Below are positions 16,702 through 16,901 of a DNA stretch of 20,000 bases, one piece after another. Numbering within the stretch: position 1 is the stretch's first letter; each line of letters starts with the position of its first letter. The DNA comes from an uncultured virus (IMG/VR IMGVR_UViG_3300023081_000010) (taxonomy: Duplodnaviria > Heunggongvirae > Uroviricota > Caudoviricetes): IMG/VR virus record IMGVR_UViG_3300023081_000010. One strand, 5' to 3'. Both the position numbers and the translations under genes were made by a program. Under the pieces are notes generated by a model. That model was not told where the DNA came from. It did not search any database and was given only the letters and a program-made list of their open reading frames with translations.

Positions 16702-16781
16702 CTAGGTGAACTCAAATCGGACTTTGGGTCAGCATCTCCGATGAACTGTTTACATAATTTAATCTGAAAAGGAGACACATT

Positions 16782-16853
16782 ATGTGGACTAAGCCAGTAG
16801 CAGAAGAAATGCGCTTTGGATTTGAAGTTACTATGTACATCATGAACAAGTAA
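16782..16853 (+). CDS. pqqA: Coenzyme PQQ precursor peptide PqqA
   Basis: Manual translation [23 protein letters not shown] (23 aa). It has the PqqA signature W-x-x-P...R-x-G-F-E-V-T-x-Y with the E-x-x-x-Y pair that is cross-linked to form PQQ. AAGGAG RBS at 16769-16774, and a terminator immediately downstream. Confidence 0.93.
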   Translation: [23 protein letters not shown]

Positions 16854-16872
16854 TTTTATTTGCGTAAAAACT

Positions 16873-16901
16873 ATGCTCCGCTCACAAAGCGGAGCATTTT
16901 T
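16873..16901 (+). terminator. Rho-independent terminator after pqqA
   Basis: ATGCTCCGCT-CACAA-AGCGGAGCAT perfect 10-bp stem followed by TTTT. Confidence 0.85.

Follow-up and report, generated by a model that had tools for sequence, protein, structure and literature searches.

A stand-alone pqqA gene in a large T4-type phage and its occurrence among other viruses

The pqqA locus and its genomic surroundings

The window analysed here, a stretch of 20,000 nucleotides, belongs to the record of an uncultured virus (IMG/VR IMGVR_UViG_3300023081_000010) that comprises 114,291 bases, is linear, has a GC content of 36.9% and is about 32% complete according to CheckV. Its nearest named phages by DNA similarity are large-genome myoviruses, for instance PA5oct and the RaK2 group. 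The window carries a T4-type structural and replication block with gp15, a tail sheath protein of 1115 aa, tail tube proteins, a head-closure/TnsA-like nuclease and the large terminase (TerL), followed by a 750-aa virion protein, the very short pqqA gene, three small ORFs, a gp32-type single-stranded DNA-binding protein and a UvsX-like recombinase (Table 1). Pfam searches of 113 further ORFs located gp23, a T4 portal, a prohead protease and a DnaB-type helicase elsewhere in the 114-kb record, and detected no integrase family in it. An earlier note on this DNA, made from the letters alone, had placed pqqA between phage genes, and this is indeed its position: TerL and the virion protein upstream and gp32 and UvsX downstream form the viral-gene flanks that are expected of an auxiliary metabolic gene.

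Table 1. Features at and around pqqA (positions in the window)
Feature	Position	Strand	Basis
Large terminase TerL, T4 type	12763-14352	+	Pfam Terminase_6N/6C, PHROG terminase large subunit
750-aa virion structural protein, directly upstream of pqqA	14366-16618	+	PHROG 13484
Promoter-like TTGATT-16-TATAAT	16631-16658	+	10/12 matches; weak evidence
Hairpin AGTGTAGTA-GCAA-TACTACACT, then T-run	16672-16702	+	read from sequence
Conserved 5' leader with predicted hairpin, upstream of the ribosome-binding site	16706-16753	+	RNAalifold
Shine-Dalgarno AAGGAG	16769-16774	+	read from sequence; 7 nt 5' of ATG
pqqA, 23 codons and stop, 72 nt	16782-16853	+	translation
Intrinsic terminator of the pqqA unit	16873-16902	+	terminator scan, folding against shuffles
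gp32-type ssDNA-binding protein	17600-18583	+	PHROG 1192 (E 7.7e-65), Pfam gp32
UvsX-like recombinase	18601-19722	+	PHROG 97 (E 2.2e-70), Pfam RecA

The ORF is a genuine PqqA. A family search had been proposed in the earlier note, and the peptide exceeds the cut-offs of both models, with 38.1 bits for Pfam PF08042 (E = 1.4e-9; cut-off 21.1) and 35.8 bits for the NCBIfam equivalog TIGR02107 (E = 5e-9; cut-off 20). The N-terminal part of PqqA is the part bound by PqqD; in the window peptide it contains W2-T-K-P5, and the total of 23 aa falls within the length of about 20-40 aa expected for the family. The cross-link pair E-x-x-x-Y is represented by Glu15 and Tyr19 within FEVTMY, and the joining of Glu and Tyr of PqqA by PqqE is established (Barr et al. 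2016, as cited in PMC7678222).

The small gene was also recognised correctly before as an ORF below the ORF-track cutoff, with exactly the same translation, a strong ribosome-binding site and a terminator of its own; the span then proposed (16769-16901) takes in the Shine-Dalgarno sequence, pqqA and the terminator. The terminator stem-loop (16873-16897), which is followed by TTTTT, has a minimum free energy of -18.1 kcal/mol (z = -4.67), and none of 200 shuffled sequences was as stable. The hairpin on the upstream side probably terminates the preceding structural gene; it was not listed by the terminator scan, and similar hairpins are aligned in three related loci (L026, L100 and L091). Upstream of this hairpin (16672-16693) lies the promoter-like site, which is at chance level in the sigma-70 scan (5 sites in the region versus 5.0 expected from shuffles). 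The leader was folded by RNAalifold from a small set of five related phages and has 12 pairs, two of them with compensatory changes, and conserved GAACT motifs on its flanks. Rfam at a permissive threshold returned only sub-threshold, chance-level matches around pqqA, including the leader. The leader hairpin may have a regulatory or processing function.

No PHROGs family matches the window peptide, which is partly why phage pipelines leave pqqA unannotated. In the window a spurious 73-aa ORF overlies pqqA on the opposite strand (16695-16916), similar to annotated ORFs in two other phage records described below.

Several other genes of the phage deserve mention. The tail sheath protein (4461-7808) is far longer than the part to which the common sheath model applies, with Pfam matching only its C-terminal 100 residues and PHROG 10581 spanning its whole length. 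Between head-associated genes, a 248-aa protein extremely rich in Asp/Glu and Pro/Met (11526-12272) has no family match in Pfam or PHROG. A weak CBM5/12 match was observed in a 439-aa virion protein (882-2201, minus strand), and CBM5/12 modules also occur in two giant proteins of 2515 and 1866 aa at C1:80722-93902 of the record, which are probably fibres. Four tryptophan-halogenase paralogues, three in a row and one more (C1:63063-67580 and C1:75067-76689), lie amid many genes for 2OG-Fe(II) oxygenases, JmjC and DUF6445 proteins, and a related halogenase is found near pqqA in another IMG/VR locus (L058). Moreover, a large glycan- or nucleotide-sugar-modification block (C1:9637-35435) contains a carbamoyltransferase, several FkbM methyltransferases, GSCFA, a sulfotransferase with APS kinase, a cytidylyltransferase/mannose-6-P isomerase and a radical SAM enzyme with an HMPTM-type zinc ribbon.

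Conservation and spread of viral pqqA

In four other IMG/VR contigs (L026, L028, L079 and L100), pqqA likewise lies between the 750-aa gene and gp32, so that the synteny comparison suggested in the earlier note has a clear outcome. Their flanking proteins are 50-89% identical to those of the window, and homologues of the 750-aa gene precede pqqA in L026, L028 and L100. When the relatives are aligned, the ribosome-binding site and the ORF are kept and the spacers have diverged; AAGGAG is present in five of the six aligned relatives and reads AAAGGA in L100. In the terminator stem, bases that differ among the window, L026 and L079 have changed in pairs. Comparison of these sequences thus indicates that pqqA has long been retained in this phage lineage.

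Since the record is a metagenome assembly, a host fragment could in principle have been joined to phage DNA, an outcome that the earlier note had named as fatal to its reading. We regard the chance of such a chimera as negligible, because the same arrangement recurs in the four independent IMG/VR relatives, pqqA is also present in cultured and sequenced phages, and 17 public runs contain at least half of the words of window positions 14366-19722 (six more rows are RNA libraries). In two runs, contigs cross the junctions on both sides of pqqA with zero mismatches. Contig depth cannot rank the genes: the high depth over gp32 and UvsX derives largely from relatives of 90-95% similarity, and uncovered bins (e.g. 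17230-17408 in three runs) are uninformative. Contigs of two RNA libraries cover pqqA without mismatches (X16, 16377-17037; X17, 16675-16939); with strand and level invisible and DNA carry-over possible, they give a weak hint of expression.

The distribution of the gene among IMG/VR viruses was surveyed by a degenerate DNA pattern for W-x-K-P, seven residues and G-x-E-V-T-x-Y, in which eight residues are fixed; the W-x-K-P part misses real variants such as WTTP in phage P19250A and WTSP in MEP301. The pattern matched at least 120 IMG/VR stretches, and all 120 of those listed are clean ORFs of 23-25 codons, beginning immediately ahead of the Trp codon and ending four codons after the Tyr. Two sub-patterns with GGA or GGC at Gly13 matched at least 119 and at least 120 stretches, respectively; as they are mutually exclusive, at least 239 viral contigs carry pqqA.

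Neighbourhoods were compared at 80 of the 120 listed loci with 4-kb flanks, the other 40 having flanks of 300 nt only. At least one phage hallmark cluster was found at 74 of the 80: YqaJ/Sak/ERF recombination modules at 27, T4-like genes at 22, SU10-like genes at 11, PolA at two, a P22-type portal at one and other hallmarks at 11 (none at the remaining six). Even among the T4-like loci, pqqA occupies at least four different neighbourhoods, namely RegA-gp62-gp44-gp45-PolB, gp32-UvsX, gp23-gp21-UvsY and baseplate-gp16-gp32. Judging from these arrangements, orphan pqqA seems to have been captured repeatedly, by several unrelated types of phage and at several insertion sites. In one group of T4-like contigs (L025, L029, L041, L044, L047, L058, L086 and others) the RegA-gp62-gp44-gp45 block that contains pqqA also holds HSP20 and, in some cases, an AhpC peroxiredoxin gene.

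The 121 listed viral copies comprise 107 distinct DNA sequences and 49 peptides. The dN/dS comparison called for in the earlier note gave a raw pS of 0.65 versus a pN of 0.13 (ratio 0.20), figures that are partly built in by the eight residues fixed in the search pattern; they were for this reason recomputed on the 14 pattern-free codons, where pS is 0.71 and pN 0.20 (ratio 0.28). Third positions have an entropy of 1.03, compared with 0.39 and 0.29 at the other two codon positions, and both Arg11 and Phe14 are invariant in all 121 copies though unconstrained by the pattern. Viral pqqA is hence under purifying selection, and a host metabolic homologue combined with such selection is what characterises an auxiliary metabolic gene.

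A tblastn search of the peptide against 50,697 phage records, another check suggested earlier, matched 12 records, ten of them with at least 80% peptide coverage. These ten are phage Melnitz (four records), Venkman, P19250A, MEP301, MEP401, MEP402 and one uncultured spring podovirus; nine are thus records of cultured phages of Methylophilales/Methylophilaceae. Like the window phage they carry a stand-alone pqqA, and their peptides of 23-24 aa are 83-87% identical to that of the window. Unlike the window phage they comprise a Kyanoviridae myovirus, siphoviruses and Zobellviridae, with other insertion sites. The pqqA ORF is intact in all of the records that were opened. It lies in an unannotated gap in P19250A, Venkman, MEP301 and MEP402, and under a hypothetical CDS of the opposite strand in Melnitz (MZ577097.1, 76140-76205; L001) and MW202481.1 (L256), where the annotated CDS is very likely a mis-call. 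The suspicion voiced in the earlier note that gene callers easily miss pqqA is hence confirmed by the opened records. In Venkman, MEP301 and MW202481, pqqA is oriented opposite to its neighbours and situated next to recombination genes. Weak tblastn matches (67% over 18 residues, E 0.3) were also seen in two records of Acinetobacter phage MD-2021a (CAKLQF020000010.1 and CAKLQH020000055.1), which may represent a further, unrelated occurrence of pqqA in a phage or prophage, or else mere chance.

Host-type bacteria and the PQQ enzymes

Among the listed bacterial stretches with this peptide subtype (at least 123), the record titles indicate methylotrophs: Methylophilus, Methylotenera, Methylobacillus, Methylovorus, Novimethylophilus and Ca. 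Methylopumilus, along with Methylophaga, Methylophagaceae and some Burkholderiales MAGs. The most frequent bacterial peptide (41 of 137 listed copies) belongs to Methylophilaceae and is, among the matches listed, identical to the most frequent viral peptide. The type found in Methylophaga differs from this Methylophilaceae/viral type, and of 22 positions the window peptide shares 19 with the Methylophilaceae type and 16 with that of Methylophaga. The window phage occurs in public runs from salt-marsh and estuary samples. The peptide match, the GC content of 37% and this occurrence together point to an OM43-like member of the Methylophilaceae, and we consider a streamlined methylotroph of the OM43/LD28 kind to be the most likely host. 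Between the pqqA region of the window and the 123 listed bacterial loci, the longest exact DNA match is 21 nt and lies inside the ORF, with no match outside it.

Host-type genomes themselves contain pqqA in more than one setting. In a Methylophilus MAG, the most frequent viral peptide is encoded ahead of PqqB, PqqC and PqqE, and other chromosomal copies in Methylophilaceae stand alone among housekeeping genes. Five host-type genomes (1.2-2.1 Mb) have three to six pqqA matches each and a single pqqE above cut-off, and this surplus of pqqA over pqqE suggests that the dosage of the precursor matters.

No pqqB, C, D or E was found in the window, where Pfam agrees with what the earlier note had reported. 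The wider genome scan that it had proposed was likewise negative: Pfam found no PqqB, C, D or E and no PQQ-dependent dehydrogenase among the 113 further ORFs of the 114-kb record, and a six-frame search of that record with PqqB, PqqC, PqqD and PqqE models detected none, although at about 32% completeness pqqB-E or xoxF could lie in the remaining two thirds. A pqqA-bearing relative of 339,794 bases (G006; 91% complete, TerL 56% identical to that of the window) has no match to models for PqqB, C, D, E or the PQQ alcohol dehydrogenase either. The same enzyme searches do find these genes in host-type genomes, which served as positive controls. A radical SAM gene of the record (C1:27060-28193) was considered as a candidate pqqE and rejected, as it scores 27.5 bits against a cut-off of 381 and carries an HMPTM-type zinc ribbon according to Pfam. 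In the viral pqqA neighbourhoods, Pfam revealed no PqqB-E and no PQQ-dependent dehydrogenase among 150 of 308 cluster representatives, which cover each of the 117 clusters with several members as well as the 33 longest singletons and leave out the other 158 clusters. The genomic association with pqqB-E that typifies PqqA is thus absent from the 114-kb record; it is a typical and not a required trait, as host genomes also hold orphan pqqA copies.

Proposed role and relation to known systems

We consider it likely that the phage gene is a functional copy that feeds the PqqB-E enzymes of the host with the only consumable component of the PQQ pathway. The gene would have been acquired from a host of the Methylophilaceae type and maintained as a separate small transcription unit, from which the phage would make the 23-residue peptide during infection. 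Host PqqD would then bind the N-terminal part of this peptide, host PqqE would cross-link Glu15 with Tyr19, and PQQ would be completed by host proteases together with PqqB and PqqC. The cofactor would be loaded into periplasmic methanol dehydrogenases of the XoxF/MxaF type, which supply the cell with energy and carbon and would in this way stay provided with PQQ while phage particles are built, to the presumed benefit of the phage. The reason for carrying only pqqA may be that the peptide is used one-for-one and must be re-made by ongoing transcription, while the enzymes persist. As PQQ is not consumed in catalysis, this proposal assumes that new PQQ is needed during a single infection cycle. 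If it is true, the phage sustains the methanol-based energy supply of its host by means of a 72-bp gene overlooked by most gene callers and phage annotation pipelines. The proposal is directly testable, as cultured phage-host pairs with pqqA exist, for example Melnitz or Venkman with Methylophilales H5P1, whose published medium includes 1 nM PQQ.

Other roles were weighed against precursor supply. The peptide might act as a decoy or inhibitor that occupies PqqD/PqqE and lowers or reprograms PQQ synthesis, given that it has a leader which PqqD would recognise and that, as a stand-alone copy, its gene would be expressed separately from the enzymes. The conservation of Glu15 and Tyr19 cannot be counted against a decoy, because the search pattern required both, but the copies of P19250A and MEP301 were not selected by the pattern and keep E-x3-Y, reactive residues that one would expect a decoy to have lost or changed. 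As the pattern-free residues are host-like and the most frequent viral peptide is the host's own among the matches listed, we judge a decoy to be quite unlikely. The HSP20 and AhpC stress genes beside pqqA in several T4-like loci would fit another kind of role, such as signalling, anti-defence activity or the supply of PQQ for some other purpose, e.g. protection from oxidative stress. We give such roles little weight, since identity with host PqqA makes a new target unnecessary and the bacteria listed with this peptide type are, judging from the record titles, methylotrophs.

The gene could also be a moron that benefits the host in lysogens of temperate relatives, the copy in the lytic-type window phage being merely inherited. 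The strand-opposed position of pqqA near recombination genes and its self-contained look in Venkman, MEP301 and MW202481 agree with this. The window phage and Melnitz are T4-like, however, the 114-kb record has no integrase family, and one site is kept across diverged T4-like relatives, all of which makes this origin of the window copy unlikely; a moron role in the temperate relatives themselves is possible and compatible with precursor supply. Lastly, a gene so tiny and host-derived might be a neutral passenger, or a patch of homology serving recombination with, or integration into, the host chromosome, for which the 21-nt exact match among the listed bacterial loci could be cited. This appears very improbable to us, because synonymous change is almost saturated and yet the peptide is preserved, the bacterial homology is confined to the ORF, and conservation extends to the ribosome-binding site and to the terminator, whose stem has paired changes.

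A broader version of the precursor-supply proposal, which we put forward tentatively as a possibility somewhat short of an even one, is that pqqA is a near-universal signature of phages that infect PQQ-dependent methylotrophs. It would have been captured independently at many sites by unrelated lineages (T4-like phages, large-genome myoviruses, siphoviruses, and SU10-like and P22-portal podoviruses), because the peptide and not the enzymes would limit PQQ once host transcription stops. Cyanophage psbA is a phage-borne, fast-turnover part of the host energy system that is kept running after host expression stops. Were the signature reading true, PQQ precursor supply would be its cofactor-level counterpart, the likeness being one of working only, as psbA encodes a protein subunit rather than a consumable precursor of a cofactor and is not homologous to pqqA. 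A 72-bp marker would then also be available for assigning uncultured viruses to methylotroph hosts, and infected cells would provide PQQ to the many surrounding bacteria that import it. If precursor supply is the right reading, then in view of the breadth of pqqA (cultured phages and at least 239 IMG/VR contigs) viral control of the PQQ supply could matter for methanol turnover in coastal and freshwater habitats.

In the canonical pqqABCDE(F) operon, as in Klebsiella pneumoniae and Methylorubrum extorquens, pqqA resembles the phage gene in its match to the family HMM, its E-x3-Y pair, its similar length and the hairpin after the gene; the phage gene differs in having no pqqB downstream. The orphan and multi-copy chromosomal pqqA genes of Methylophilaceae encode the same peptide type, stand alone and in many cases lack a large downstream ORF in their housekeeping contexts. 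Their pqqBCDE lies elsewhere in the same genome, whereas the phage copy depends on the enzymes of another genome.

The idea of a viral PqqA, whose novelty the earlier note had left to a search, is not new. Coutinho et al. (2020, Microbiome, PMC7678222) describe it for VP_266, a population of T4-like Methylophilaceae phages from Lake Baikal. By that description, VP_266 is likewise a low-GC T4-type phage (35% versus 37% in the window phage) with a predicted Methylophilaceae host, in which the PqqA gene was proposed to be an auxiliary metabolic gene aiding methanol oxidation. VP_266 contigs are described as encoding a methanol dehydrogenase, whereas none was found in the 114 kb of the window phage or in its 340-kb relative, and the window phage comes from salt-marsh and estuary samples and belongs to the RaK2/PA5oct-like group with large genomes. 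Viral PqqA was thus already known, and what is new here is its occurrence in this RaK2/PA5oct-like lineage of large T4-type phages and in this habitat. Supplements aside, the only other publication found on viral pqqA is a reservoir study of 2026, which lists viral pqqA/D/E as phosphorus-cycling genes; a 2024 paper on RiPPs and phages mentions bacterial PqqA only, and a term search of the available text of the papers on Melnitz, MEP301 and MEP401/402 returned no mention of phage pqqA. Compared with what the literature conveys, viral pqqA is far more widespread and more frequently unannotated, and its breadth and systematic non-annotation go beyond what is in print. For instance, P19250A is stated by Coutinho et al. 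(2020) to encode none of the auxiliary metabolic genes reported there, and this does not hold for pqqA, since its record (KX815270.1; L252) has an intact, unannotated copy at 28085-28153 between gp30 and gp29.
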